From an uncultured Fimbriimonadales bacterium (GTDB lineage Bacteria; Armatimonadota; Fimbriimonadia; Fimbriimonadales; GBS-DC), in the NCBI GenBank assembly GCA_964595265.1, contig CAZQPV010000001.1, positions 4,632 through 39,416 on the forward strand: a stretch of DNA of 34,785 bases. The letters are read 5' to 3'. The translations under genes were made by a program, and so were the position numbers. Numbering within the stretch: the stretch's first letter is position 1; every line of letters begins with the position of its first letter. Below, one piece after another: positions 2,821 through 27,097 of the stretch. Below the pieces are notes generated by a model. The model did not search any database, was not told the origin of the DNA, and saw only the letters and a list, made by a program, of their open reading frames with translations.

Positions 2821-5210
2821 AGCGCTATCTTTGCCTGCTCCGTTACAGAGGACGGTACAGTATCATCCCACTCCAGCGTCAGTTTGCGCACGCCTTCCCG
2901 CACGGCGCGGGCGCGACGCACCACCGCCAGCCAGCCGCCCAACAGCGTGAGCGGCGGACCCAGCCACACCAGTATTGTGAACGGCTTGTAGTAGACCTCC
3001 AGCGGAATCACCCAGCGCGGATTTGTCTCAGGCTTGCCTGGCACCATGATGAGCTGGAACTCCACCAGTCGGCGGCTGACATCCATCTGCCCCACCAGAA
3101 TCTGCGCTCCGTCAGGCAGGGGCACGGGAATGGGAATAATCCCACTCCGATCCATCAGACGGAACGGCGCCACCTCCACAGGCTCTTTCCAGCGGGGATG
3201 GCTCACCCGTGCGACCGCAATCGCCCGAAAACCTTCCTGACCCATCGCCCCAGCGGTTTCAAAACCCTTGAACTCTATCGTGTAGTCCCCTACCTTGCCC
3301 TTCTCTTTCTCGTGCAAGCGCAAGGTCAGGGGGTCGGCGCTCACCTGAGGCGGCGCAAAAAACGACACATACAGGTCATGGTCCCACCAGCGCACGATGT
3401 GGGGCCAGACCACATTGCTCACTTCCCCGCCACGCTGAAACTGGTAGAAGCGCGGTTCCACCACAAACTTCGTTTCGTGCGAGGCGACCTCAAGTCGCAC
3501 GCGGTTGAACTTATCGCGCATCGGGTCGCCCGGAAACTTTTCGTTGCCTGTCATGCCCAGATAGCGCCATCGGTAGCCGAACGCAATCGTGTCCCTCCCC
3601 TGCTCCACAATCACCTGCTGTTTCACTTCGTAAGCATAGGAGAGGATCAGCCCGATTAAACCCACCGCCAGCCCGAAGTGGGTCAGGAATCCGCCCATCG
3701 AGTAGCGCGCGTTCCACAAGCCTGCCAGCGCCTGTCCGTAGGCGGCGGGGCGAAGCCACGCCTGCCAGCCCTTCCCCTTCCCGACCTGCGCCCGACGCCA
3801 GATGGCGCCCAGATTCGCGAACGCCACAAACGATAGCAGCACCACGATAAACAGCGTCAGCGGCTCGCGAAAACCATACCAGAACGCCGCGAACCCCACC
3901 AGCACTGCCAGCACCCAGCTTTTGGTGAGACGCTCCAGAATCTGATCCAGCGTCATGCCGCGCCAGCCGAGCATTGGCGCTGCCGCCGCCACAATCGCCG
4001 TGAGAATAATCCACGGGATATGCACCCGATTATAAAAGTCGGGCTTGAGCGCCGCCGCCTGACCATGAAACAGTTTCGCAATCAGCGGCCACGAAGTGCC
4101 CACAAGGCTGATTAGCGCCGAGATACTCAGGAGCGCAATCCCCCACCGCAAAGCCGCTTCACGCGAGAAGCCCTTCGTCGTATCCGATGCGGGTAGCGGC
4201 ATCTGCCGATACCGATAAAGCCAAAGCCCCAGCGTTACCAGAAGTCCTCCCGCCATCAGCGCGACCAGGATGCCCAGCGCGCTCTTGGCTAAGGCGTCAA
4301 ACGAGTGAACCGAGACCTCCGCCAGCACCCCACTGCGCGTTAGAAAAGTCCCGTACACGAACAGCAGGAACGGAATCGCCAGCAGCAGCGGGTTCCAGCG
4401 CACCATTCTGCCCCGATTTACCTGAAGCATGATGCCGTGAACTCCTGCTGCCATAAATAGCCACGGGAAGTAAGAAGTGTTCTCCACAGGGTCCCATGCC
4501 CAGAAGCCGCCCCAGCCGAGCGTCTCATACGCCCAGTAGCCGCCCAGCACCAGCCCGAAGCCAAGCATCGTGGTCGCATAAATCGCCCACGGGCGCACAC
4601 GAAGAACCCACTCATAATATTCGTTGCGCCAGAGTGCCGCCAGTGCGTACACGAACGGCACTGCCAGCGCAGAAAACCCTGCGAAGATAATCGGCGGGTG
4701 GATGGTCATCCAAATATTTTCCAGCGAGGGGTTCAAGCCGAAGCCGTCCTGCGGCGGCCAGACTTCAGGCGCGGGGTCAGGTTTGGGCAGCGGCGCAAAC
4801 GGGCTTTGATACGCCAGAATGCCCAGCAGCGCCAGCACCAGCCCCGAACAGAGGGTCATCACCCAGCGTTCGTAGCCCCCTGCTGTGCGCATTAGCACCA
4901 GCCCATAAATGCCCGTCCAGATAGCCCACAGCAGGAAGCTTCCCTCCTGCCCCGCCCACGCGCCTGCAATCTTGTACCACAGGTGCAGACTCCGCTCGCT
5001 GAAGCTGAACACATACTGCAGGTCGTAACGCCCCGTAATCAGCGCGTACTGCAGTACCGCCTCCGTGGCGAGAATCATCAAAAACGCGCCCCAGAACAGC
5101 CCCCTACCCCAGCGCATTAGGTGGGGGTAGCGCCCGCTGAGCGCATACGCCATCACCGCCCCCAGCGCAAACGCGCACCCCAGCCAGACCACCAGATAGC
5201 CCAGTAGCAT
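2817..5210 (-). CDS. ccmF: Cytochrome c-type biogenesis heme lyase subunit CcmF (System I)
   Basis: A polytopic membrane protein with the WWD heme-handling motif (WGGFWAWDPVENTSYFPWL) and a long C-terminal CcmF_C-like region. It lies directly downstream of ccmE with a 4-nt gap. Confidence 0.9.
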   Translation of the reverse strand: MLLGYLVVWLGCAFALGAVMAYALSGRYPHLMRWGRGLFWGAFLMILATEAVLQYALITGRYDLQYVFSFSERSLHLWYKIAGAWAGQEGSFLLWAIWTGIYGLVLMRTAGGYERWVMTLCSGLVLALLGILAYQSPFAPLPKPDPAPEVWPPQDGFGLNPSLENIWMTIHPPIIFAGFSALAVPFVYALAALWRNEYYEWVLRVRPWAIYATTMLGFGLVLGGYWAYETLGWGGFWAWDPVENTSYFPWLFMAAGVHGIMLQVNRGRMVRWNPLLLAIPFLLFVYGTFLTRSGVLAEVSVHSFDALAKSALGILVALMAGGLLVTLGLWLYRYRQMPLPASDTTKGFSREAALRWGIALLSISALISLVGTSWPLIAKLFHGQAAALKPDFYNRVHIPWIILTAIVAAAAPMLGWRGMTLDQILERLTKSWVLAVLVGFAAFWYGFREPLTLFIVVLLSFVAFANLGAIWRRAQVGKGKGWQAWLRPAAYGQALAGLWNARYSMGGFLTHFGLAVGLIGLILSYAYEVKQQVIVEQGRDTIAFGYRWRYLGMTGNEKFPGDPMRDKFNRVRLEVASHETKFVVEPRFYQFQRGGEVSNVVWPHIVRWWDHDLYVSFFAPPQVSADPLTLRLHEKEKGKVGDYTIEFKGFETAGAMGQEGFRAIAVARVSHPRWKEPVEVAPFRLMDRSGIIPIPVPLPDGAQILVGQMDVSRRLVEFQLIMVPGKPETNPRWVIPLEVYYKPFTILVWLGPPLTLLGGWLAVVRRARAVREGVRKLTLEWDDTVPSSVTEQAKIAL

Positions 5211-5214
5211 CCGC

Positions 5215-5592
5215 TCACCGCCCCTGTGCGGTCTCCGTGCCCTGATACTTGCTGGGGCACTTCACCAGCATGTCTTCTGCATAAAACACGCCGTCGCGGT
5301 AGCTGCCAATCACCACCACCTGCGACGCCATCTCAAAATTATTCGGCTTGCCCTTTGGATACACCACTTTGACCTTGCCCGTCTCGTCTTCGCCCTCAAA
5401 GGTGAGCGTCATGCTTCGCACATCAAACTGGATGGTCTCTTTGAGAGGTTTGAGGGCGACATGCACATGCTCCGCGCGTTGCGCAAGTTGCGACACCTTC
5501 ACATAGGGGCTGGTGTTCTGAATGAACGCGGTCACGGTAAAGGCTAACCCCGCTAATAACAACACGAGCAGAATAATCGTGTTCAGTTTCAT
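5215..5592 (-). CDS. ccmE: Cytochrome c-type biogenesis heme chaperone CcmE, CxxxY variant
   Basis: Only the last 125 codons of track ORF 5215..6096 look real, starting at MKLNTIILLVLLLAG (membrane anchor). An OB-fold-like body ends in MLVKCPSKYQG. GGAGG lies 7 nt upstream of the ATG at 5592. Confidence 0.85.
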   Translation of the reverse strand: MKLNTIILLVLLLAGLAFTVTAFIQNTSPYVKVSQLAQRAEHVHVALKPLKETIQFDVRSMTLTFEGEDETGKVKVVYPKGKPNNFEMASQVVVIGSYRDGVFYAEDMLVKCPSKYQGTETAQGR

Positions 5593-5619: not shown

Positions 5620-6968
5620 TACGCGGCGATAGACCAGAGTGCGAGCATCGCCACGAGGTTGTTGAGCGCGTGCAGAATAATGCTCGGCACCAGCGAACGG
5701 GTGTACGCGAACAGGAGCGCCAGCACCGTACCAATCGCCGTGAGCGGAATAAGCCCCGCAAGAAACTGGGGATGAATCACGGCGAACAGAAACCCGCTCA
5801 CAAACGCGCTGAGCCACACACGCCCCGTGCGCTGCCACAGCGTCTGGAACAGCACGCCCCGAAACACGAACTCCTCCACGATCGGCGCCAGCACAACGCC
5901 CTGCACGAAAATCACCACCCAGCTCACCCAGCCTTCTGCCCCCCTCGCCGCTTCCTGAATCGGATGACTCGACTGGGAAACTGTGGGCGCCAGCAATACA
6001 ACCAGCGCAAGCCCCGCCACTGCGACAGGCACATACGCCAGCCCCCCCGTCAACACGGCAAGAAGGTGCTTCCCGAAGCCATTCGGCGCGAACCACCGAA
6101 CGCCTGTTTCCAGACGCTCCTGCACGGTGTGCAGGTACGACAGACTCAACGCCGACGCCATCAGCTGATTCAACAGCGTCGTTTCAGGAAGCGTGATGCC
6201 AAACCCCTGCAAAAATCGGTCCAGAAACTCCGCGGGCGCAAGGATGATTGTCAGCAAAAAAATGACCAGTGCCCATAGTAACGGGTCTAAGGCAAACGGC
6301 GAGGCGTTTTCCAGCGGGCGCGCTGGCAAGCGCGGCGGATTTACCAGCACCCACAGCAGCACCCCCAACCCGATGACCACCCCGAAGCACACGGCTATGA
6401 AAATAGCAAATAGCACCGCCACTCCCAGCACACCGCGTCTGTGCAGCGAGTCGCGTATCGCGCTGGCTTTCGCCGCCTCCCCCGCCTTTTGCGCCATGAC
6501 TGCCTCGGCAAGGCGCAAATAAAAGGGCGAAACCGTCGGCTCCAGAGCGTGAAGAATCCTCGGGATATGCTCCGGCGTATGCGTCTCTGTCAGCGCCCAT
6601 ATCCAGAGAGCCGTGTACCATCGTCGTTCTGCGGGCGTCAATGCATCGGCAGGCAGCTGCGCGGCGCGCTGGAGCGTCTTCACATACGCCTGCTTGCCGG
6701 AATACGCCTGCACAATTGCTTTACGCACCTGCTGTTCCCAAACGGGGACCTCCAGCTCCGAGAGCGCCTGATTCAGGAGGGGGTTGGAGGCAGGATCTGA
6801 GCCAAACGCGAGCGCCAATTTGAGCAAAGTCTCCGCGCCCTCTGCCGACCTGTCCGCCGATTGGTTCGGCTGACTCAGCATCCAGCCAAACAGGGCAAAA
6901 TTGAGGGTGATGATGAGAGAGAAAAGGAGAACGAGAAGCCACCATGCGTACCGACTTGACTCGCGCAT
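5619..6968 (-). CDS. CPBP-family (CAAX/Abi) intramembrane glutamic endopeptidase with a long N-terminal domain
   Basis: The C-terminal half carries the three CPBP motifs: EEFVFRGVLF, FAVIHPQF and ILHALNNL. It has multiple TM helices. Confidence 0.8.
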   Translation of the reverse strand: MRESSRYAWWLLVLLFSLIITLNFALFGWMLSQPNQSADRSAEGAETLLKLALAFGSDPASNPLLNQALSELEVPVWEQQVRKAIVQAYSGKQAYVKTLQRAAQLPADALTPAERRWYTALWIWALTETHTPEHIPRILHALEPTVSPFYLRLAEAVMAQKAGEAAKASAIRDSLHRRGVLGVAVLFAIFIAVCFGVVIGLGVLLWVLVNPPRLPARPLENASPFALDPLLWALVIFLLTIILAPAEFLDRFLQGFGITLPETTLLNQLMASALSLSYLHTVQERLETGVRWFAPNGFGKHLLAVLTGGLAYVPVAVAGLALVVLLAPTVSQSSHPIQEAARGAEGWVSWVVIFVQGVVLAPIVEEFVFRGVLFQTLWQRTGRVWLSAFVSGFLFAVIHPQFLAGLIPLTAIGTVLALLFAYTRSLVPSIILHALNNLVAMLALWSIAA

Positions 6969-8530: not shown

Positions 8531-9895
8531 GTGAGCATAAGCAAGGCTTCCCATGCCAGCGCCTCTTCTGGTAAGCCGCATGTAGTGATTGTAGGGGGCG
8601 GTTTCGGTGGGCTACAAGCCGCCAAGGCGCTTCGAAACGCGCCTGTTGAGGTTACCCTGATAGACAAGCGAAACTTTCACCTCTTTCAGCCCCTGCTCTA
8701 CCAGGTTGCTACGGGAGGATTGGGACCCGCCGAAATTGCCGCGCCCATCCGCGCCCTCCTGAAACGGCAGCCTAACACGCGCGTGTGGAACGCCGAAGTG
8801 GTCGATATTGACCCGCAAACGCAAACCGTCTTTCTCCGAGAAGGAGATACGGTGCCCTATGATTTTCTCGTGCTGGCAGCAGGCTCCATGTATCACCATT
8901 TCGGTCATCACGAGTGGAGCGCCTACGCCCCTGGGCTAAAAACCGTAGAAGATGCCCAGGAGATTCGGCGGCGTGTTCTGCTCGCTCTGGAGCATGCCGA
9001 GCGTGAAACCGATGCAGAGCGTAAGCAGGCGTGGTTGACCTTCGTAATTGTAGGCGGTGGTCCGACGGGCGTCGAACTGGCAGGCGCCCTGGCAGAACTG
9101 GTGCGCGTTACGGTGCGCGGCGAGTACCGAAACTTTGATTCCGCGTCGGCACGCCTTGTGCTGCTGGAAGGAGGTTCCCGCATCTTACCTACCTATCCCC
9201 CAGAGCTAAGCGAATATGCTCTCAAGGCGCTTCGTCGATTGGGCGTTGAAGTGTATACCGGGGCGATGGTGACTCAGGTGGACGCTCACCAGGTTGTTTA
9301 TCAATATCGGGGCGAGACCGTTCACTGGAACACGCGCACGGTGCTATGGGCAGCGGGGGTGCGCTCTGTGCCATTAGCCGAACGACTTGCCGAGCGGGTT
9401 TCGCTCCCGACCGATAAGGGCGGACGCCTGATTGTCAACCCCGACCTTTCGGTGCCAGGGTATCCGAACCTGTTTGTCATCGGCGATATGGCACATTATG
9501 CCCATCAGGGAAATGCGCCGCTGCCGGGAGTCGCACCCGTCGCGATTCAGCAGGGCGCCTATGTGGCGCGAGTGATACGCAATCGCCTTCAAGGGCGCCC
9601 CACACCGCCGTTCCGCTACCGCAACAAAGGCGATATGGCGGTCATTGGGCGCAAAGCCGCTGTAGCCCAAATTGGGCGCATGAAACTCAAGGGCTTCATC
9701 GCCTGGCTGGCGTGGCTCTTTGTGCATCTCCTCTACCTCGTTGGCTTCGAGAACAAACTGCTGGTGCTGATTCAGTGGGCATGGAACTATTTCACGCGCA
9801 ATCGCCGCGCACGGCTGATTCTCTACTGTTCTGAACATGGTCAGCGTGGGAATAGACCTCAACCCCTTGACACAGCCGAATCGGATGGGGTATAA
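8531..9895 (+). CDS. ndh: Type II NADH dehydrogenase (NDH-2), FAD/NAD(P)-dependent oxidoreductase
   Basis: It has two Rossmann dinucleotide motifs (VVIVGGGFGGL and FVIVGGGPTGVE) and a C-terminal amphipathic/membrane segment. The start is GTG at 8531. Confidence 0.85.
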   Translation: MSISKASHASASSGKPHVVIVGGGFGGLQAAKALRNAPVEVTLIDKRNFHLFQPLLYQVATGGLGPAEIAAPIRALLKRQPNTRVWNAEVVDIDPQTQTVFLREGDTVPYDFLVLAAGSMYHHFGHHEWSAYAPGLKTVEDAQEIRRRVLLALEHAERETDAERKQAWLTFVIVGGGPTGVELAGALAELVRVTVRGEYRNFDSASARLVLLEGGSRILPTYPPELSEYALKALRRLGVEVYTGAMVTQVDAHQVVYQYRGETVHWNTRTVLWAAGVRSVPLAERLAERVSLPTDKGGRLIVNPDLSVPGYPNLFVIGDMAHYAHQGNAPLPGVAPVAIQQGAYVARVIRNRLQGRPTPPFRYRNKGDMAVIGRKAAVAQIGRMKLKGFIAWLAWLFVHLLYLVGFENKLLVLIQWAWNYFTRNRRARLILYCSEHGQRGNRPQPLDTAESDGV

Positions 9896-19687: not shown

Positions 19688-20026
19688 GCCTATGTTCTCG
19701 TTATCCCATTGTTCGGCGAACTGGCGGATGGTGTGTAGCAATTCCGCCAGCCGCTCGCCGCGCGGGGTAAACCGATACTCCACATGCGGCGGGATCGTAG
19801 GATACGCAATTCGCTGGAGGATGCCGTATCGCTCCAGTTTGCGCACGCGCTCCTGAAGCACTTTGGGGGTTAGCCCTGGCAGGGCGCGCTCCAGCTGACC
19901 GGGGCGGCAAATCCCCCTTGAGATGGCGTCCAGTATCTCCAGCGTCCACTTGCACTTGAGAATGTCGGTCAGGCACGCATAGACTTCGGCGTGGGGATAG
20001 CCTTCCATTTCACGCACAATTTTCAT
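19667..20026 (-). CDS. HxlR-family winged-helix transcriptional regulator
   Basis: It shows the typical HxlR pattern (KWTLEILDAI..G..RPGQLERALPGLTPKVLQERVRKLERYGIL.R...P..PPHVEY.FT.RG). Its start overlaps the recN stop (ATGA), and its 3' end overlaps serS by 21 nt. Confidence 0.85.
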   Translation of the reverse strand: MKIVREMEGYPHAEVYACLTDILKCKWTLEILDAISRGICRPGQLERALPGLTPKVLQERVRKLERYGILQRIAYPTIPPHVEYRFTPRGERLAELLHTIRQFAEQWDNENIGSGTNHL

Positions 20027-21687
20027 AACGGAACCTCCTCGGCTTGTTTTTGCAGAAGTTCGCGGGCGTGTTGCAGGGCGGTCTCGGTGGCTTCCCCTGC
20101 GAGCATGCGGGCGATTTCCGCCACGCGCGCCTCGCCTGCGAGCGGGGTTATCGCGACGCGGGTGCGCTCGCCTTCCACAAACTTTTCAATTAGGAAGTGC
20201 GTGCCCGCGCGGCTGGCAATCTGCGGCAGGTGCGTGATGCAGAGAATCTGGAAATGCTCCGCCAGATGCGCCAGCTTCTCGCCGACATAGTACGCTGTGC
20301 GCCCGCCCAAGCCCGCATCAATCTCGTCGAACACCAGCGTCGGCACGGGCGAGGCGTCCGCCAGCACGGCTTTGAGCGCGAGCATCACGCGCGACATCTC
20401 GCCCCCGGAGGCAATTTTGTTGAGCGGGCGCGGCGGCTCGCCCGGATTGGCGGAAAACAAAAACTCTATTGCGTCTACCCCCGAAGAGTCCATCGGTTTG
20501 GGGGTGATGGCGACTTCGAACAGGGCGCGTTCCATCGCCAGCTCGCGCAGATGCCCCTGCACAGCCTGAGCGAAGCGTTCTGCCCCTGCACGGCGCAGTT
20601 CCGAAAGTTGCGCACAGAGCTGCTCTGCCTCCGCCTGCGCCTGTGTTAGTTCCTGCTCAACCACCTCGCGCCGCTCAGACTGATGCTCCAGCGCCTGCAG
20701 TTTCTGTTCCGCCTCGGTGGCGTATGCCAGAATTGCCTCAATCGTGTCGCCATACTTGCGCTTGAGGCGCTTGATGAGTTCCAGCCTTGCAATCACCTGC
20801 TCCAGCCGTTCGGGGTCGTATTCCACCGTTTCCGTATACTGGCGCAGAGTGTGGGCGACTTCTTCCAGCAGGGCGAGCGCGCTCTCCAGCTGCTCTTGAG
20901 CGGCGCTCATACTGGGGTCAATCCGGCAGATTTCGGTGAGGTTGCGGCTGGCGGAGGCGGCGAGGTCATACGCGCTCCCCTCGCCCATCAGCCACTCGTA
21001 GGCGGCACCCGCCAGCGACAGCAGACGCTCGGCGTGCGTCAGGCGTCGTTCTTCCGTGAGCAGATGCTCCTCTTCGTCGGGGGTCAACTCGGCGGCGCGA
21101 ATCTCCTCCACCTGAAAGCGATACAAGTCCAGCATTTGCTCGCGCTCGCGTTCGCGGGCAATCAGTTCTTGCAGCTCGTTTTGCAGGCTTCGGAACCTTT
21201 GTACGGCGTCCCGCACGCGCACCCGCAGTTGCAACGCCGGCTCCCCCAGCCAGCGATCCAGTAGCTCCAGATGCTGGCTGGGCTTGAGCAGCGACTGGTG
21301 TTCGTGCTGACCGTGCAGGTCTACGAGCCGTTCACCCAGCGCTTTGAGCGTACCCAGCGGCACGGGTTGCCCGTTCACCCGAGCCAGCGAGCGCCCCCCC
21401 GCCTGCACCTCGCGATAAAGATAGAGCGCGCCGTCCTCCAGCTCAATCCCCAGGTCAGCGAGTTCTAATGAAGGCGACGGCAGGAAGACGGCGCTGACCT
21501 TGAGGCGGTCGGCGCCTGCGCGGATTAGCGTCGGGTCAGCGCGGTCGCCCAGCACCAGCCCCAGCGCGTCCAGCAGAATCGACTTCCCCGCCCCCGTCTC
21601 ACCCGTTAACACATTCAAGCCGGGCTGGAAATCCACCTCCAGCCTGTCAATAATCGCCAGGTTCTCCACATACAGGCTCTGGAGCAT
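20023..21687 (-). CDS. recN: DNA repair protein RecN (SMC-like ATPase)
   Basis: It has an N-terminal Walker A (LTGETGAGKS), a long coiled-coil, a signature-like ASGGEMSR and Walker B LVFDEIDAGLGG. Confidence 0.93.
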   Translation of the reverse strand: MLQSLYVENLAIIDRLEVDFQPGLNVLTGETGAGKSILLDALGLVLGDRADPTLIRAGADRLKVSAVFLPSPSLELADLGIELEDGALYLYREVQAGGRSLARVNGQPVPLGTLKALGERLVDLHGQHEHQSLLKPSQHLELLDRWLGEPALQLRVRVRDAVQRFRSLQNELQELIAREREREQMLDLYRFQVEEIRAAELTPDEEEHLLTEERRLTHAERLLSLAGAAYEWLMGEGSAYDLAASASRNLTEICRIDPSMSAAQEQLESALALLEEVAHTLRQYTETVEYDPERLEQVIARLELIKRLKRKYGDTIEAILAYATEAEQKLQALEHQSERREVVEQELTQAQAEAEQLCAQLSELRRAGAERFAQAVQGHLRELAMERALFEVAITPKPMDSSGVDAIEFLFSANPGEPPRPLNKIASGGEMSRVMLALKAVLADASPVPTLVFDEIDAGLGGRTAYYVGEKLAHLAEHFQILCITHLPQIASRAGTHFLIEKFVEGERTRVAITPLAGEARVAEIARMLAGEATETALQHARELLQKQAEEVPL

Positions 21688-21775
21688 CGAGGGGAATTGT
21701 ACCTGTTAGCGACAATCATATGCAGAGTGGGATGATAAACCACCCTGCTAACACGGGACAGTGGAGAGGCGCCTC

Positions 21776-22396
21776 TCAGCGAAGTTTGTCTATGGCAAAG
21801 CCCACACTCCTAACTCCCGGGGTTCTAAGTTGACCTTCCCATATCTCTATGTTCATTATCACCTTCCAACCGTTCAACTCGAAGGTAAGATATGCATTGG
21901 GTATCATTTCATACATCACCTGTGCGCCAGCAGGAAGACCTGTCTGCGGGAAGGGTTGCTCCATCGTCTCAAAAAGATGCTTCATCGATGCGAGCAGCTC
22001 AAGGGCTTTCCCCTGAGCATCGTGTGGAAGTGAGTTGTACGCGAGCCACTGTCCGAGTCTCGGTCCATTCCATCGTTTTCCTAACTCCTCTATTGCTCGC
22101 GCAAGCCACTTTGCATATGCTTTTTCAGCCTCCTGAGTTAGCTTTTTGAAAATTTCTGACACGACTTTCATAATCTCATCGCGCTGCTCACTGGGAACCC
22201 CGCAAGAGAAGAGGAAGCTTATCTCCTCTGGGCGCGATTTGTCTCTGGATGGGCGAGACTTCGTTGTAGGCGACCGATTCGCAGGTTGCTCCGAACTTTG
22301 AGGGTAGGGTATTACGCTTACCACTTTTTGGGGATTGCCCCCCACTCCGGGGATGTCGTATGTAAGCCATACTTTACCGGCTAAATCAACGCGCAC
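21776..22396 (-). CDS. Hypothetical protein (206 aa from a GTG start; start uncertain), last gene of the AT-richer sigma operon
   Basis: The ORF has no family I recognise and no signal peptide, but it has a Pro/Ser-rich linker. It is co-oriented and closely spaced with the upstream genes. Confidence 0.4.
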   Translation of the reverse strand: MRVDLAGKVWLTYDIPGVGGNPQKVVSVIPYPQSSEQPANRSPTTKSRPSRDKSRPEEISFLFSCGVPSEQRDEIMKVVSEIFKKLTQEAEKAYAKWLARAIEELGKRWNGPRLGQWLAYNSLPHDAQGKALELLASMKHLFETMEQPFPQTGLPAGAQVMYEMIPNAYLTFELNGWKVIMNIEIWEGQLRTPGVRSVGFAIDKLR

Positions 22397-22453
22397 GAGA
22401 CCCTGCTGGAGAGCATCCTCAAAAGGTGTCTCCAGAACGCCACTCAGATACGC

Positions 22454-22939
22454 TCATGCGATCGCATTATAATGAGAACTCGGGTAAAGCACCGTATTCA
22501 CCCACTCTGCGACGAGGGAGCGTGCTGCATCGTTTTTGGAAAGGTCAAGGGAGCCGTTGCTCTGAAGGAGCATCTCCAGCAGCTCTGCCTCAAGACGTGC
22601 TCGCCCTTCTCCAACGCGCTTCGCTCCTGGTAGCAATAGGATTATCGTGCCCTCCCCTGCAAGCGAGCCCGACTCTATGTGCCATCCCCTCACTTCGGCT
22701 AGAGATAGCAATCCATCTCTGTCCCCCTGCTCAGCAACTGAAATAGCTGTAAGGGCATCTTCTCGCTCCTCAGGAACCGACACAACAACGCACGGGACGG
22801 CGATAGGTACGGACTCCGGCAGTGCCAGGCTCTTGTCCTGAGCGACTGCCAGCACATCCCCGAAAAGAGTGACCAGTATACCCAGCGCACATCGTAGATA
22901 AGCTCTCATGGTCTTACGATACAAGTTGTACCTGAACAT
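22454..22939 (-). CDS. Hypothetical secreted or membrane-anchored protein (161 aa)
   Basis: I chose the start at ATG 22939 because GGAGGG lies 3 nt upstream. The N-terminus MFRYNLYRKTMRAYLRCALGILVTLFGDVLAVAQD resembles a signal peptide. No recognisable family. Confidence 0.45.
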   Translation of the reverse strand: MFRYNLYRKTMRAYLRCALGILVTLFGDVLAVAQDKSLALPESVPIAVPCVVVSVPEEREDALTAISVAEQGDRDGLLSLAEVRGWHIESGSLAGEGTIILLLPGAKRVGEGRARLEAELLEMLLQSNGSLDLSKNDAARSLVAEWVNTVLYPSSHYNAIA

Positions 22940-22961
22940 GTTCCCTCCAGTATCTTGACTA

Positions 22962-23282
22962 CTATGCTTTCTCCCGCATTCCCGCATCTGGTGCCACCTG
23001 CACACATTGACATCTGTAAATCAATACCTTGTAGAGGCAACAGAGTCCACCAACTTGTGAGCACCCATCTCTCAAGCCTGCTGGAAACAACTCTCGAGAG
23101 CAGGCAACAGGGCAGATGTTACGCTGAGAGCAAAGCCATCTTTCTCCCTCGCAAATAGGCTGCGGTACAAGAATCTGCCCAGGAAGACTGGAGCTTACAC
23201 TTGCGCCTTCCTGTGCCATTGCATTTGCTACTACGAAAGCCATCGCAAATATAACCACCAATCTCAGTCCTGTGCGTAGCAT
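22962..23282 (-). CDS. Small Cys-rich secreted protein (106 aa; 9 Cys in an ~83-aa mature part)
   Basis: It has a signal-peptide-like N-terminus (MLRTGLRLVVIFAMAFVVANAMA|QEG). A strong Shine-Dalgarno (GGAGGTGA) lies 6 nt upstream of the ATG. Cysteines are spread through the mature region, including a CC pair. Confidence 0.5.
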   Translation of the reverse strand: MLRTGLRLVVIFAMAFVVANAMAQEGASVSSSLPGQILVPQPICEGERWLCSQRNICPVACSRELFPAGLRDGCSQVGGLCCLYKVLIYRCQCVQVAPDAGMREKA

Positions 23283-23350
23283 TTTTTGTCACCTCCGCAC
23301 TTAAAAATAGTCACCTCTTCCAGAGCGGCCACGTTTTTGTACTCCCTGAG

Positions 23351-24034
23351 TCACCTCTCACCCAACAACTCTCGCAGACGCGCCAGTGCCAACGCGCGTT
23401 GCTTGTTCACCCAAGCACAACTCATACTCAGCCGCTGCGCAATTTCGCGCTCTCCCAAGCCCTCTCCATAGATCCATTCCAGGATTTGACGCTGGACATT
23501 CGGCAACCTCTCAAGCGCTTCCCTCACCGCGCCGCAAAGCACTGCCTCTTCAACCGCCTCTTGTGCCCCCGGGTCCTCAAACTCCGCTTCTTCTCCTGTC
23601 TCTTCGTTTACGGGCATCTCCGCCACACATGCCCAGTGTCGTCTCAGGCGTTTCCACTCATCAAGGATTGCCCACACAGCACGCTGGTAAGCAAATGCCT
23701 CCAGAGGAACGCCTCGCTCGGGCTGGTAGTCGTGGAATGCTTGCCATACTGCAAGATGGGCGAGAGCAATCCGCTCCTCACGCCAGTAGTCCGCGTCGTA
23801 ATGCGGAGGTGGTGGAAGGCGGTTAGTTGAGGCAATAGCACGCTGGGCAGCGTGTTGGAGAGACGCTGGGAGTAAGGCGGGCAGGGTGTCGTAGTTACTG
23901 TCTCCCACGGGGCTCACCCCCCCCCGCAACACGGTGGAAGAGCGCAAGGGCACTCCCCCCAACATCCCGAATTGCGGCGTCTGAACCAGTACCGCCATAA
24001 GCATCGCTGCCCTCCCACTGAAAAGGATTCTCAT
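23351..24034 (-). CDS. Sigma-70 family RNA polymerase sigma factor (group 4/ECF-like) with an atypical N-terminal ~85 aa; true start uncertain
   Basis: The region-2-like block is IALAHLAVWQAFHDYQPERGVPLEAFAYQRAVWAILDEWKR. The region-4 HTH block is LPNVQRQILEWIYGEGLGEREIAQRLSMSCAWVNKQRALALARLREL. Confidence 0.7.
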   Translation of the reverse strand: MRILFSGRAAMLMAVLVQTPQFGMLGGVPLRSSTVLRGGVSPVGDSNYDTLPALLPASLQHAAQRAIASTNRLPPPPHYDADYWREERIALAHLAVWQAFHDYQPERGVPLEAFAYQRAVWAILDEWKRLRRHWACVAEMPVNEETGEEAEFEDPGAQEAVEEAVLCGAVREALERLPNVQRQILEWIYGEGLGEREIAQRLSMSCAWVNKQRALALARLRELLGER

Positions 24035-24127
24035 CCCTCGCGAAAATTCCTGCTAGTTTGAGAGACAAATCTGAAGGAATTCATCGCCCCACAAAACCGA
24101 TATCCTGTGCTGTACCCCCATACAAAG

Positions 24128-24230
24128 GTACAATTCCCCTCACCTTGAGCGAGCGGGCGCTGGTGATTCTGGGACCCACCGCCACGGGCAAGACGGCGGT
24201 GGGTATTCTGCTGGCGGAGGCGCTGAATGT
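24128..24230 (+). repeat. Direct repeat copy 1: duplicated miaA promoter (TACAAT at 24130-24135) plus the first ~28 codons
   Basis: Hand alignment to 25026-25128 shows 93 of the first 99 nt identical. The shared text starts ggtacaattcccctcaccttgagcgagcgggcgctggtgat. Confidence 0.9.
24146..24230 (+). pseudogene. Truncated miaA 5' fragment (TTG start, P-loop GPTATGKT retained, homology lost after codon ~28)
   Basis: It translates LSERALVILGPTATGKTAVGILLAEALN, then diverges and runs antisense through vapC (track ORF 24058..24693). Confidence 0.6.
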
Positions 24231-24721
24231 TATCCCTCTGGATCCAGCAAGGCACGCAGCTGCTCCCAATCTCCAGCCTCCACATCAAATGCCACCAGCC
24301 CCTCCCGACCTGCTGCCCGCAGCAAGCGATCGTCCGCACTCACGAACACCAGCCGCTCGCCCCCTGACTCTTGTCGCCTGCCCAACGCCGCCTGCAAATG
24401 CACTGCATCCGCAGCCGTCAGACTGTGACGCACCACCAGATCGACTACCACCGCCCAGTCCGACTCCGATAAACTTTGCAGCTGTATGTGTGTCCGATCG
24501 ATTGCCAGCTGCTGTACTAATCGCGCCAGCCCTGCCCGACTCATCTCCCCCCTATTCGCAAGCCGATGCAGTACCGCCACCACTTCTGCCAGACCCAGCC
24601 ACGCGCAAGCGATGCGACAGGCTGAATGGGCGGCAACATATTCTAGCAGCGCATGAACCGTTGCAGAACCAGGCTCCGCGACATAACGTTTGACCCACGC
24701 ACTCGATTCCAGATAGACCAT
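24230..24721 (-). CDS. vapC: PIN-domain toxin, VapC-like
   Basis: PIN signatures are present: N-terminal VYLESSAWVKRYVAEPGS (Glu where Asp is usual), TAADAVHLQAA, and FVSADDRLLRAA. It lies 5 nt downstream of the small upstream ORF. Confidence 0.72.
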   Translation of the reverse strand: MVYLESSAWVKRYVAEPGSATVHALLEYVAAHSACRIACAWLGLAEVVAVLHRLANRGEMSRAGLARLVQQLAIDRTHIQLQSLSESDWAVVVDLVVRHSLTAADAVHLQAALGRRQESGGERLVFVSADDRLLRAAGREGLVAFDVEAGDWEQLRALLDPEG

Positions 24722-24726
24722 CAGGT

Positions 24727-24984
24727 TTACTCCTGGCGCATCGCCTGAATGAGCTGGCTCGCCTTTGTGGGAGCAAGCGCCTGCGCAGCCTGCTGGCGTG
24801 CCTCTTCAAGGGAGGGCAACGGCTCGGTGAGGTTCAGTTGCCAGAGGGCGCAGAGTCGGTCAAAAAGGGGGTCGGTAGCAGGATGCAAATCCACCTCCAC
24901 CTGCGTGCCATCGGGCAGAGGCGGTTCCTGCTCCAGCTCTATTGTGCGCCCGCGTATCACTCCGCGTAAACCCATCACGCTCAC
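24727..24984 (-). CDS. Putative antitoxin, DUF104/AF2212-like N-terminal fold (85 aa from GTG 24984; alternative ATG at 24975)
   Basis: GVIRGRTIELEQEPPLPDGTQVEVDL resembles the short beta-rich DUF104 antitoxin pattern that pairs with PIN toxins. The gene is small and immediately upstream of vapC. Confidence 0.55.
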   Translation of the reverse strand: MSVMGLRGVIRGRTIELEQEPPLPDGTQVEVDLHPATDPLFDRLCALWQLNLTEPLPSLEEARQQAAQALAPTKASQLIQAMRQE

Positions 24985-25025
24985 CTGCTAAGAGGATACC
25001 TCATTTTGCCGCCTCTCCGTCCAAG

Positions 25026-25128
25026 GGTACAATTCCCCTCACCTTGAGCGAGCGGGCGCTGGTGATACTGGGACCCACTGCCACGGGCAAGACGGCGGTA
25101 GGCATGTTGCTGGCGGAGGCGCTGGACG
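25026..25128 (+). repeat. Direct repeat copy 2: native miaA promoter and 5' coding end
   Basis: See copy 1. TACAAT lies at 25028-25033 and the TTG start at 25044. Confidence 0.9.
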
Positions 25129-25970
25129 GCGAGATTATCTCCGCCGATTCGGGCGCGGTCTATCGGGGGTTGGACATCGGCACCGCCAAGCCCACGCCCG
25201 AAGAACGGCAGCGCGTGTGGTTCCACCTGATTGATGTGGCAGACCCTGACGAAGTGTTCACCGCCTCGCGCTTTCGGGAGCTCGCGCTGGAGGCGATGGA
25301 ATCGATTTGGGCGCGAGGCAAGCGTGTGCTGATTGTGGGCGGCACGGGGCTGTACCTGCGCGTGTTGCTGCACGGCTTCAGTCTCGCACCACCCCTTACC
25401 TCGCCTGAGATTCGGGAGCGCCTGATGGCGGAGTGCAAAACCCTCGGCACACACGCGATGCACGCGCGTCTAAAGCAGGTAGACCCAACCGCCGCGGCGC
25501 GCATCCACCCCAACGACGCGGTGCGAATTGTGCGGGCGCTAGAGGTCTTCGAGATGACAGGCGTGCCCATCAGCCAGTGGCAACGACGGGCTGAGTCGGA
25601 GCTGCCGAGCCTCAAGGTGGGGCTGACCATGCCACGCCAGCAGCTCTACGCCCGAATCGACGCCCGAATCGACCAGATGGTGGCGCATGGCTTTCTACAG
25701 GAGGTGCAAAACCTCTTGCAAAAAGGGTACAATAAAGACCTGCCCGCTCTCAAAGGGCTGGGCTACCGCCAGATGATCGAGTATCTGGAGGGGCGCCTCT
25801 CGCTGGAGGAGGCGGTTCGCCTCTGGAAACGCGATACGCGGCGGTTCGCAAAGCGCCAGATGACCTGGTTCCGCAAAGAACCCGGTGTCCACTGGCTCGA
25901 CGCAAGTGCGGGCGCAGAAAAGACCGCCCAGCATATCTTGAGTCTGATTGAACAACAGGGAGGGCTATGA
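25044..25970 (+). CDS. miaA: tRNA dimethylallyltransferase MiaA
   Basis: It has the P-loop GPTATGKT and the blocks ISADSGAVYRGLDIGTAKPT, HLID and RRFAKRQMTWFR. I chose the TTG start at 25044 for length (308 aa) and its position after the TACAAT box. The track ORF starts further upstream. Confidence 0.9.
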   Translation: MSERALVILGPTATGKTAVGMLLAEALDGEIISADSGAVYRGLDIGTAKPTPEERQRVWFHLIDVADPDEVFTASRFRELALEAMESIWARGKRVLIVGGTGLYLRVLLHGFSLAPPLTSPEIRERLMAECKTLGTHAMHARLKQVDPTAAARIHPNDAVRIVRALEVFEMTGVPISQWQRRAESELPSLKVGLTMPRQQLYARIDARIDQMVAHGFLQEVQNLLQKGYNKDLPALKGLGYRQMIEYLEGRLSLEEAVRLWKRDTRRFAKRQMTWFRKEPGVHWLDASAGAEKTAQHILSLIEQQGGL

Positions 25971-25973
25971 AAG

Positions 25974-26234
25974 ATGCCAAAGTCGATTAATTTGCAGGAT
26001 ATGTTTTTGAATCAGGTGCGCAAGGAAGGTATTGGCGTAACCGTGTACCTGAGCGGTGGGCTGCAGTTGCGCGGCGTGGTGCGCGGTTTCGATGCGTTCA
26101 CCATCCTTCTGGAAAGCCCTGGCAAACCAGTTCAGCTGGTCTACAAGCACGCGGTCACTTCGATTGTGCCCTCGCGCCCGGTACCCGGCTACGGACCCAG
26201 CCGTGCTTCGCAAGAAGGTGAGTTCGAGGAGTGA
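25974..26234 (+). CDS. hfq: RNA chaperone Hfq
   Basis: Sm1/Sm2 motifs are present: QDMFLNQVRKEGIGVTVYLSGGLQLRGVVRGFDAFTILL...LVYKHAVTSIVP. This is the classic miaA-hfq arrangement, with a GGGAGGG Shine-Dalgarno. Confidence 0.93.
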   Translation: MPKSINLQDMFLNQVRKEGIGVTVYLSGGLQLRGVVRGFDAFTILLESPGKPVQLVYKHAVTSIVPSRPVPGYGPSRASQEGEFEE

Positions 26235-27097
26235 ATCGCCTCGCCTTTGTTAAGGTTCACGGCAACGGCAACGACTTCATTTTGCTGGACGGCATAGGCG
26301 AGGCACTGCCTGCGCTGGATTGGAGCATGCTGGCGCGCGCGTGGTGCCCTCGGCGTTATGCTATCGGCGCGGATGGTCTCTTGCTGGCGCTTCCCTCAGA
26401 GGTCGCTGACTACCGAATGCGCTTGTTCAACGCCGATGGCTCGGAAGCCGAGATGTGCGGCAACGGCATCCGCTGTCTGGCGCACTTTCTGTTCATGCGC
26501 TATGCGCCCGAAGCAGAGGCGTTGCGCATCGAAACCGGGGCAGGCATTCGGGAGGTGTTTCGCGCCTGCCTGGATGCCACCCAGATTCGGGTCGCGATGG
26601 GCGCGCCGCGCCTCGCTCATGCCGAAATCCCCGCCGCAGGCGCGCCCCCTGACCAACCCATCATCGAACAACCGCTCACCCTGCCCTCGGGCGAGACGCT
26701 CTGTATCTCCGCGGTCAATACCGGCACACCCCACGCTGTCTTGTTCACCGAGCGCCCTCTGAGCGAGTTCCCGCTGGAGCAAATCGGTCCGCAGGTGGAG
26801 TGGCATCCCCTCTTTCCCCAGCGCACGAACTTTCAGGTGGCGCGAATACGCACCCGCAACGAGGTGGAAGTGCGCACATGGGAACGCGGGGCAGGCGCGA
26901 CACTCGCTTGCGGCACAGGCGCATGCGCAGTGGTGGTGATCGGCGTGCTAACCGAACGGCTCGAACCCCAGACCCTCGTGCATATGCCCGGCGGCGACCT
27001 GCTTATTCACTGGGAAGACCGCGACACCCTCTGGATGACGGGACCTGCGCAGACCGCCTTTGAAGGCACGGCGCCTTTGCCCGTTCCTTCCCTCTAA
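26231..27097 (+). CDS. dapF: Diaminopimelate epimerase
   Basis: It has the blocks KVHGNGNDFILLD, the first catalytic Cys MCGNGIRC, the second ACGTGACA, and NTGTPHAV. The GTG start overlaps the hfq stop (GTGA). Confidence 0.93.
   Translation: MNRLAFVKVHGNGNDFILLDGIGEALPALDWSMLARAWCPRRYAIGADGLLLALPSEVADYRMRLFNADGSEAEMCGNGIRCLAHFLFMRYAPEAEALRIETGAGIREVFRACLDATQIRVAMGAPRLAHAEIPAAGAPPDQPIIEQPLTLPSGETLCISAVNTGTPHAVLFTERPLSEFPLEQIGPQVEWHPLFPQRTNFQVARIRTRNEVEVRTWERGAGATLACGTGACAVVVIGVLTERLEPQTLVHMPGGDLLIHWEDRDTLWMTGPAQTAFEGTAPLPVPSL

Follow-up and report, generated by a model that had tools for sequence, protein, structure and literature searches.

How does a toxin–antitoxin (TA) cassette come to lie between two copies of the start of a housekeeping gene? 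How chromosomal TA cassettes move without an obvious mobile element is still poorly understood. We addressed this question at the miaA locus of an uncultured Fimbriimonadales bacterium, in a stretch of 34,785 nt that is called the window in the following; coordinates are positions in the window unless a relative is named. Directly upstream of miaA an intact vapBC-type cassette is found. It is bracketed by two copies of the miaA promoter and 5' end, copy 1 behind the toxin gene and copy 2 at miaA itself (Table 1). We consider it probable that this cassette occupies a hot spot in which such modules are swapped and that copy 1 is an old scar left by host recombination. The locus is not a new kind of mobile element.

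Table 1. Features of the miaA locus in the window, with the evidence for each.
Feature	Position	Strand	Basis
recN, left border of the hot spot	20023..21703	-	tblastn, 92-97% to relatives
Variable filling of the recN-miaA interval	21708..24117	-	open reading frames (ORFs) 21776-22396, 22454-23005; sigma-70/ECF-type factor 23351-24034
Copy 1, non-coding relic of miaA promoter and first 27 codons, plus junction AATG	24118..24229	+	repeat family, alignments, relatives' junction
vapC-type toxin gene, PIN domain, 163 aa	24230..24721	-	Pfam PF01850 above gathering score
Portable cassette, vapC stop codon to ~24 nt upstream of vapB start	24230..25008 (779 bp)	-	comparison with L134, L135, L002
vapB-like antitoxin gene, 85 aa, GTG start, alternative ATG at 24975	24727..24984	-	5-nt gap to vapC, constant pairing
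Back-to-back promoter region, PvapB (minus strand) and PmiaA (plus strand)	24985..25043	.	promoter scan, sequence
Copy 2, functional miaA promoter and 5' end	25017..25128	+	repeat, alignment; continuous with full-length miaA
miaA, tRNA dimethylallyltransferase, 308 aa, TTG start	25044..25970	+	Pfam IPPT, 1.6e-92
hfq	25974-26234	+	Pfam Hfq
dapF	26231-27097	+	Pfam DAP_epimerase

A repeat search shows a single direct-repeat family, 24118-24225 and 25017-25124, with 108 nt at 92% identity and a spacing of 899 bp. Pairwise and multiple MAFFT alignments agree on it. An earlier note on this DNA had described a direct repeat of ~100 bp around the TA genes. Its count of 93/99 identical positions is confirmed, with copy 1 placed one base off: in the correct register 24127-24225, not 24128-24226, pairs with 25026-25124. 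Homology between the copies extends from ~24118-24122 to 24229, where copy 1 ends in AATG and copy 2 reads GACG. Leftward of copy 1 no residual homology is detected (local alignment against 2000 shuffles, p = 0.8). Both copies carry GGTACAAT (24127-24134 and 25026-25033), followed by ten bases and a TTG (24145 and 25044). The -10 box, TTG start and P-loop (GPTATGKT) listed in the note are thus present in both, and its ~28 shared miaA codons are 27. Between the copies are found solely the gene of the PIN protein and, upstream of it, an 85-aa ORF, both on the minus strand. As the note had stated, the toxin stop codon (24230-24232) abuts copy 1, whose last bases AATG end at 24229.

The assignment of the toxin part of the cassette as PIN/VapC stands. 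The PF01850 match covers residues 2-137 (E = 4.9e-6, 27.6 bits against a cut-off of 23.6), and the acidic positions of the domain are E5, E46, D105 and D130, the last three invariant. At codon 5 (24707-24709) Glu replaces Asp in all close homologues (12 clusters), which are under purifying selection, and distant homologues have Asp; the change appears conservative. The protein is a putative toxin. The label "DUF104-like", previously attached to the antitoxin, is not confirmed. Searches of Pfam, NCBIfam and PDB sequences give no match, hhalign of its N-terminus with a protein of PF01954 (Pfam AF2212-like, the family meant by that label) gives a weak hit over 28 residues (E = 0.0013, probability 18%), and Foldseek finds no fold match for its low-confidence AF2 model (pLDDT 74, pTM 0.35). 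The antitoxin is modular, with 35 conserved N-terminal residues that are common to antitoxins with differing C-termini. The pair of antitoxin and PIN toxin is kept in the window and in relatives, numbered here with an L (L082, L138, L134, L135, L085-L097). The ratio of nonsynonymous to synonymous divergence (dN/dS) is 0.10-0.13 for vapC across five genomes and 0.03-0.15 for vapB, which indicates purifying selection on both genes. Relative L002 has a ~214-bp internal deletion of the toxin gene (its positions 9427-9690, equivalent to window 24310-24523) and an antitoxin 98.8% identical to that of the window. Toxin lost and antitoxin kept is the classic order of TA decay. The dN/dS values and the L002 deletion bear indirectly on a growth inhibition by VapC that VapB would neutralise.

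Comparison with other genomes shows that the cassette is present in further contexts, with sharp ends. In L134 and L135 the homologous DNA, 84.6-86.6% identical, covers exactly window 24231/2-25008. These cassettes sit within arrays of Rhs orphan toxin tips, and their flanking repeats contain the TIGR03696 Rhs-associated core domain (E ~1e-17). In L002 the vapC-side end of the homology is again the stop codon, at 24230, and on the other side it runs on into miaA. The cassette itself contains a -10-like GGTATCCT at 24993-25000 on the minus strand.

In the relatives the recN-miaA interval is found in several states. MiaA searches assign the window to Fimbriimonadales (Armatimonadota), mostly metagenome-assembled genomes (MAGs) from hot springs. 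In L140-L142 (MiaA 81-82%) a single gene lies between recN and miaA, with no TA pair and no TACAAT promoter before miaA. In L002 (MiaA 93%) recN is followed by 83 bp, the same cassette with its vapC deletion, and miaA, and there is no copy 1. The order copy 1, vapC, vapB, copy 2, miaA is found in the window, in L082/L083 and in L138/L084, with the same 899-bp spacing and three unrelated left flanks. L001 is L082 minus exactly 899 bp. Finally, L136, L137 and L139 have other PIN/antitoxin cassettes directly upstream of miaA and no copy 1, and their MiaA protein is the same as that of L138. The earlier note had asked for an empty site, or a TA pair next to miaA, in related genomes; L001 is an empty-site state, and L002 has the cassette at miaA. 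Truncated remnants of the antitoxin 5' module occur three times in the interval of L001, L082 and L136. The recN-miaA interval of this Fimbriimonadales group appears to be a recombination hot spot that swaps small TA cassettes and Rhs toxin tips.

The proposal that the direct repeats serve as recombination partners is borne out by L001 and L082. Their flanks match for 5.8 kb on each side, with 0 and 1 mismatch, and all 19 mismatches lie inside the repeat. The join in L001 has just ~5 nt common to the two parental sequences, so that a k-mer collapse is unlikely. On this assembly comparison one unit was lost between the repeats, and L001 indicates that they permit precise loss of the cassette. 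The junction of copy 1 with vapC dates the event. Copy 1 ends in GCGCTG-AATG, directly followed by the (T/C)TA of the vapC stop, identically in the window, L082/L083 and L138/L084, two of these three lineages being close relatives. Since AATG is present in all copy-1 lineages, the joint formed once. The junction is therefore the mark of one old event before the split of lineages now at a synonymous divergence (dS) of 0.30-0.46, and the recent insertion assumed previously does not hold. In L082 the repeat measures 181 bp and takes in ~14 codons from the start of vapB, so the duplicated unit consisted of the cassette, the promoter and 27 codons.

We propose that this 899-bp unit was duplicated or inserted once by the host recombination machinery, for which three routes may be envisaged. 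It could have been a tandem duplication, with the first cassette copy trimmed later. An 899-bp circle could have entered by a single crossover of the Campbell type. Or incoming DNA could have been anchored in miaA by homology, its vapC end being joined illegitimately within the resident gene, at codon 28. By any route miaA would be left whole and under its own promoter, and behind the toxin gene a truncated fragment of promoter and 5' end would remain. A repeat spacing of 899 bp in the window, L082 and L138, one novel joint and a full-length miaA are as in a tandem or Campbell product, and the 181-bp repeat of L082 with its vapB remnant is as predicted by an 899-bp unit of either kind. A tandem duplication with a toxin deletion in one copy, found in L102, supports duplication in a related cassette. 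The earlier note had named the Campbell crossover, without integrase or insertion sequence (IS). The structure fits, and a link to an integrase, IS, phage or plasmid did not emerge; the Campbell crossover is indistinguishable from the tandem and the anchor-plus-illegitimate routes. No tyrosine or serine recombinase turned up in the interval of the window or in its counterparts in L001, L002, L082, L136 and L138. No carriage of the cassette is seen in viral and plasmid collections. The cassette ends have no inverted repeats, the cassette holds no transposase, and the duplication of 108-181 bp is unlike a target duplication of 2-14 bp. The structural reading, based on recombination and free of an integrase, is reasonable and not unique, and we infer both the recombination route and the gene conversion discussed below.

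Two further models of the repeats were considered. A long target-site duplication from a staggered cut is not favoured, as the L082 repeat contains cassette sequence. A general rule that flanking direct repeats are target duplications at all related loci fails at L086, L093-L097, L134 and L135, where they are Rhs core ends.

What the two copies have recorded since then can be read from their substitutions. Over the 27 codons the window copies show six differences, five synonymous and one Ile/Met, as counted before; the probability of at least five synonymous changes in six is 0.011 under random substitution. This bias had been taken to mean that copy 1 diverged as a functional allele in another lineage. 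We polarised the differences with the miaA 5' ends of L001, L002, L082, L136 and L138. Five of the six turn out to be derived in copy 2 (ATA, ACT, GTA, ATG and TTG; four synonymous and the Ile>Met) and one in copy 1 (GGT). As the differences are mostly derived in the functional copy, the synonymous bias reflects selection on copy 2 alone, and the earlier reading fails. The five private copy-2 substitutions lie within 41 nt (25066-25106, miaA codons 8-22), with none in the 45 nt before. A short imported tract, instead of sequential mutation, could account for this cluster.

In the relatives, copy 1 shows no such bias. The two copies of L082 have four differences, none synonymous and a TAG stop at codon 4 among them, and copy 1 of L138 has V>A and A>G. 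Differences of this kind in relatives had been named in the earlier note as contrary to its own view. Taken together, private changes are one synonymous and five nonsynonymous or nonsense in the relic copies, compared with seven and one in the functional copies (Fisher p = 0.026). This pattern identifies copy 1 as a non-coding relic. We also considered copy 1 as part of a coding ORF, a frame of 183 codons that stays open antisense to vapC both in the window and in L138, and rejected it at a pN/pS of 3.2 and with the codon-4 stop of L082.

The rate of change in copy 1 is peculiar. In this copy 7-9 of 108 positions (6.5-8.3%) distinguish the window from L082/L138, compared with 17-26% at third codon positions of vapC, vapB and miaA (Fisher p = 0.0003-0.002). 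Copy 2 has 12-13 differences (11-12%) in the same comparison, above those of copy 1. Between L082 and L138 copy 1 is 5.6% diverged, versus 1.2% in the flanking genes (98.4-99.4% identical; p = 0.003). Slow change over the long term and fast change over the short term fit recurrent recombination of copy 1 with functional miaA 5' ends, or its conversion by them, and codon 2 supports this. There AGC is confined to the window, where both copies have it; GCA is found in copy 1 of L082 and in the functional miaA of L136 and L138, and ACC in copy 1 of L138 and in L002. The likeliest source of the similarity of copy 1 to miaA is recombination or gene conversion with functional miaA alleles, and since the event copy 1 would have exchanged sequence with these 5' ends or been converted by them. 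The donor lineage that the earlier note had expected did not emerge: among the miaA alleles compared, none lies nearer to copy 1 than 5/81 differences.

Several points weigh against this reading of the locus. Evidence for gene conversion inside the window comes mainly from one codon, the AGC. Private changes number one in copy 1 and five in copy 2, the reverse of neutral decay of equally old copies. The conservation of copy 1 could be due to selection instead of conversion. The three recombination routes cannot be told apart with the present data. A breakpoint at most 4 nt from the vapC stop is a coincidence that a random tandem duplication leaves unexplained, and in four different flank contexts it is with the stop codon that the cassette ends; many illegitimate events that trim like a ratchet may have produced such sharp ends. 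L001 is itself a MAG, and its loss allele is probably real. The antitoxin, finally, fits no family described in Pfam, NCBIfam or PDB.

The alternative put forward in the earlier note is a circular element with a miaA 5' fragment and vapBC from another lineage, which entered by one homologous crossover; copy 1 would be a foreign functional allele whose promoter makes an antisense RNA over vapC. We hold this to be unlikely. Its architecture is that of a Campbell product, and the 899-bp presence and absence in L082 and L001 fits RecA-mediated excision and integration, but the event is old and inherited, and no circle or vector is seen in the viral and plasmid collections. Window copy 1 has an open frame with only synonymous-type differences, yet five of the six are derived in copy 2, and copy 1 of the relatives has a stop codon and nonsynonymous changes. 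The copy-1 alleles of L082 (GCA) and L138 (ACC) match functional alleles of other strains, whereas no allele comes nearer than five differences to copy 1. An intact -10 box in the window and the lack of a predicted terminator would allow transcription, but the promoter lacks conservation, the window having no -35 and L082 and L138 reading CACAAT. The antisense layer over vapC is unsupported. Alternatively, copy 1 could be kept by selection, as a portable RecA homology arm, as a ~107-nt antisense RNA to the 5' end of the miaA-hfq mRNA, or as an antisense promoter over vapC. We judge this to be quite unlikely, in spite of a divergence 2-4 times below that of third codon positions (p = 0.0003-0.002) and below that of copy 2. 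Each of the three lineages whose vapC at miaA is intact has copy 1, and L002, where vapC is deleted, lacks it, but this sample amounts to two deep lineages, and the L134 and L135 cassette works without copy 1. Three unrelated left flanks, joined to copy 1 at nearly the same position in the window and L138, also agree with selection; a variation of 5.6% between near-identical L082 and L138, and a stop codon, nonsynonymous changes and a -10 change in copy 1, do not. No terminator lies between vapC and copy 1, but the fold is ordinary (z = -0.95) and has no Rfam match.

The copies could also be attL and attR of a site-specific element, which entered the miaA 5' end with a replacement promoter and 5' end and later lost its integrase and everything else except the TA pair. 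This we regard as very improbable. Direct repeats do bracket foreign genes beside a housekeeping gene with a restored 5' end, TA pairs are typical survivors of decayed islands, and the interval in relatives has IS-like fragments and many foreign genes. However, no integrase is found in or near the interval in seven-plus genomes, reduction to the same exact 899 bp would be needed before the lineage split, the cassette occurs with identical ends in Rhs arrays without the miaA repeat, and the L082 repeat takes in vapB, a part of the cargo. An assembly artefact, that is, a chimeric join of two strain variants, has a practically negligible chance. The contig is of the MAG type, and the Logan unitig breaks inside both repeats. 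The junction of copy 1 with vapC, however, has no shared k-mer able to cause a mis-join, and the same architecture is found in contigs of 192, 303 and 16 kb from other samples. The independent Logan assembly SRR11582148 (L081) is 100% identical over both junctions, which rules out an artefact.

A broader idea is "homology hitch-hiking", to which we give a small chance. vapBC cassettes would spread without a recombinase of their own, and each insertion would carry or create a 100-190-bp copy of a conserved neighbour-gene end; RecA of the host would integrate, excise and transfer them between strains, irrespective of the upstream sequence, and the relic would be retained as a homology arm. The relic might also pair with the miaA-hfq mRNA in antisense. 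The idea is kept alive by the recurrence of the geometry at the unrelated L091/L089 site, by the gene-end repeats of L101, by the sharp cassette ends and by a copy 1 more conserved than neutral sites.

These two other loci are described here in their own right. At an independent site in L091 (5608-5693 and 6514-6700; also in L089 and L087), a vapBC cassette of 71% identity lies in the same geometry between the two copies of a ~187-bp duplication. Duplicated are the last 8 codons of an ABC permease gene, the spacer behind it and ~47 codons from the start of the next gene. A deletion of ~100 nt marks the upstream copy as a relic, and R1 is 41/41 identical in L091. In L101 the last 60-110 nt of a gene for a 583-aa protein, stop codon included, are repeated after each of three successive cassettes (1672-1755, 2994-3104, 3709-3785, 4626-4752). 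The cassettes are a two-gene module, a 73+131-aa pair and a vapBC pair, so that the array is spaced by copies of a host gene end.

How the locus, read as a recombination scar in a swapping hot spot, relates to known systems was considered next to each of them. It resembles VapBC type II TA systems in two small co-oriented genes 5 nt apart with the antitoxin first, in a PIN domain with its four acidic positions occupied, in purifying selection on both window genes, in a relative that has deleted the toxin and kept the antitoxin, and in a modular antitoxin with a toxin-specific C-terminus. It is unlike them in the first acidic residue, Glu and not Asp in the window clade, and in an antitoxin without a Pfam, NCBIfam or PDB family. 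The closest parallel in dynamics is found in orphan arrays of Rhs, contact-dependent inhibition (CDI) and type VI secretion system (T6SS) toxins. Kirchberger 2017 (PMC5361080; Jackson 2009 as cited there) proposes for such arrays a sequential displacement through a homologous anchor and an illegitimate join. The miaA locus likewise has a constant anchor (miaA and the vapB 5' end) beside variable modules, and strains with identical MiaA differ by whole modules. Partial anchor copies occur as direct repeats (the vapB-5' remnants and copy 1), no dedicated recombinase is present, and the same vapBC cassette is physically inside such arrays in L134 and L135. By contrast, the anchor is a housekeeping promoter and 5' end plus an antitoxin 5' module, not the conserved core of a toxin gene, and the relic has no attached module for re-expression.

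A Campbell-type single crossover or a tandem duplication is familiar from suicide plasmids. The unit length equal to the repeat spacing (899 bp), the one novel joint, the intact target gene and the loss of the unit via the repeats are alike. The miaA-locus repeats differ in being 7-10% diverged and old, one breakpoint falls at the cassette end, and no circular or replicating form is known. SXT/R391 elements, ~100 kb long, enter the prfC 5' end by a tyrosine integrase at a 17-bp core and bring a replacement promoter and 5' coding sequence. Foreign DNA at a housekeeping 5' end and a second promoter and 5' end that restores the gene are common to both; at miaA there is no integrase, the repeat is 108-181 bp and the cargo 0.8 kb. 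TA cassettes are common in chromosomal integrons, where they are likewise small, often promoter-poor, sharp-ended and arrayed, some separated by direct repeats. The miaA-locus repeats are instead copies of host gene ends, there is no intI or attI, and an attC would have no space, as the stop codon is where homology between contexts ceases. In a literature search we found no description of a TA cassette that lies between two copies of a host gene start.

The locus thus appears to be a variant of known processes, of modest interest in itself; the interest lies in the natural series of states and in a second locus of the same geometry. Near-identical strains represent the filled, empty, toxin-deleted and replaced state, the junction is dated and another site is at hand, so that models with host recombination only become testable. 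A housekeeping gene can be parted from its promoter region by a cassette and stay unharmed: the gene start is duplicated, and the duplication later lets the cassette leave cleanly. If copy 1 is only a scar, the locus is a tidy example of known processes.

PmiaA in copy 2 is a full match, with -35 TTGCCG at 25006-25011, -10 TACAAT at 25028-25033 and 10 nt to the TTG, and its -35 straddles the cassette end. Window copy 1 keeps the -10 TACAAT (24129-24134), and the promoter scan gives no -35 match for it; L082 and L138 have CACAAT in copy 1 at this place. By this comparison the copy-1 promoter is not conserved. No terminator is predicted between vapC and copy 1 or in copy 1, and a vapBC read-through RNA would thus carry ~107 nt complementary to the miaA 5' end. 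Copy 1 and the vapC 3' end show no unusual structure, and a search of 21.6-26.3 kb against Rfam gave a sub-threshold chance hit only. The 14-nt motif GGTACAATTCCCCT is common to recN (21690-21703, minus strand) and both miaA copies (24127-24140 and 25026-25039, plus strand), three matches versus 0.16 expected. It lies 9-10 nt before the start codon in recN and miaA, with no Shine-Dalgarno sequence. This placement suggests leaderless-type promoters, and a leaderless miaA mRNA would begin with TTG, or in L002 with GTG. The miaA of the 82% relatives has an ATG instead and lacks such a promoter.

The remainder of the recN-miaA interval is variable. Over 21.6-23.6 kb its G+C content is 50-57%, compared with 60-68% in the flanking core genes. 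The part 21740-22968 is common to the window, L001, L082 and L136 at 81%, and the whole 21708-24117 block is absent from L002. For the two ORFs at 21776-22396 and 22454-23005 no annotation could be obtained. The sigma-70/ECF-type factor (23351-24034; Pfam and NCBIfam sigma matches) has a ~90-aa N-terminal extension, and its gene has no counterpart in the relatives examined, so that it is particular to the window genome.

Some further observations concern the vapBC family in the relatives. It is repeatedly found inside orphan Rhs tip arrays (L134 6188-6661 and 8511-8984; L086 and L093-L097, with TIGR03696 core ends as direct repeats), and an Rhs tip fragment is also present in the recN-miaA interval of L001 (7789-8748) and L082. 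The promoter and first ~30 codons of two different antitoxin genes are 98-100% identical within a genome in L135 (1-127 and 2155-2281) and in L082 (5720-5832 and 7416-7528), each gene being partnered with a different PIN toxin. Either a common N-terminal module or frequent conversion may explain these identical 5' ends. In L102 the related vapBC cassette that is tandemly duplicated occupies 5267-5566 and 5688-6483; its first copy has lost most of vapC, and vapB is fused there to the last ~20 vapC codons.

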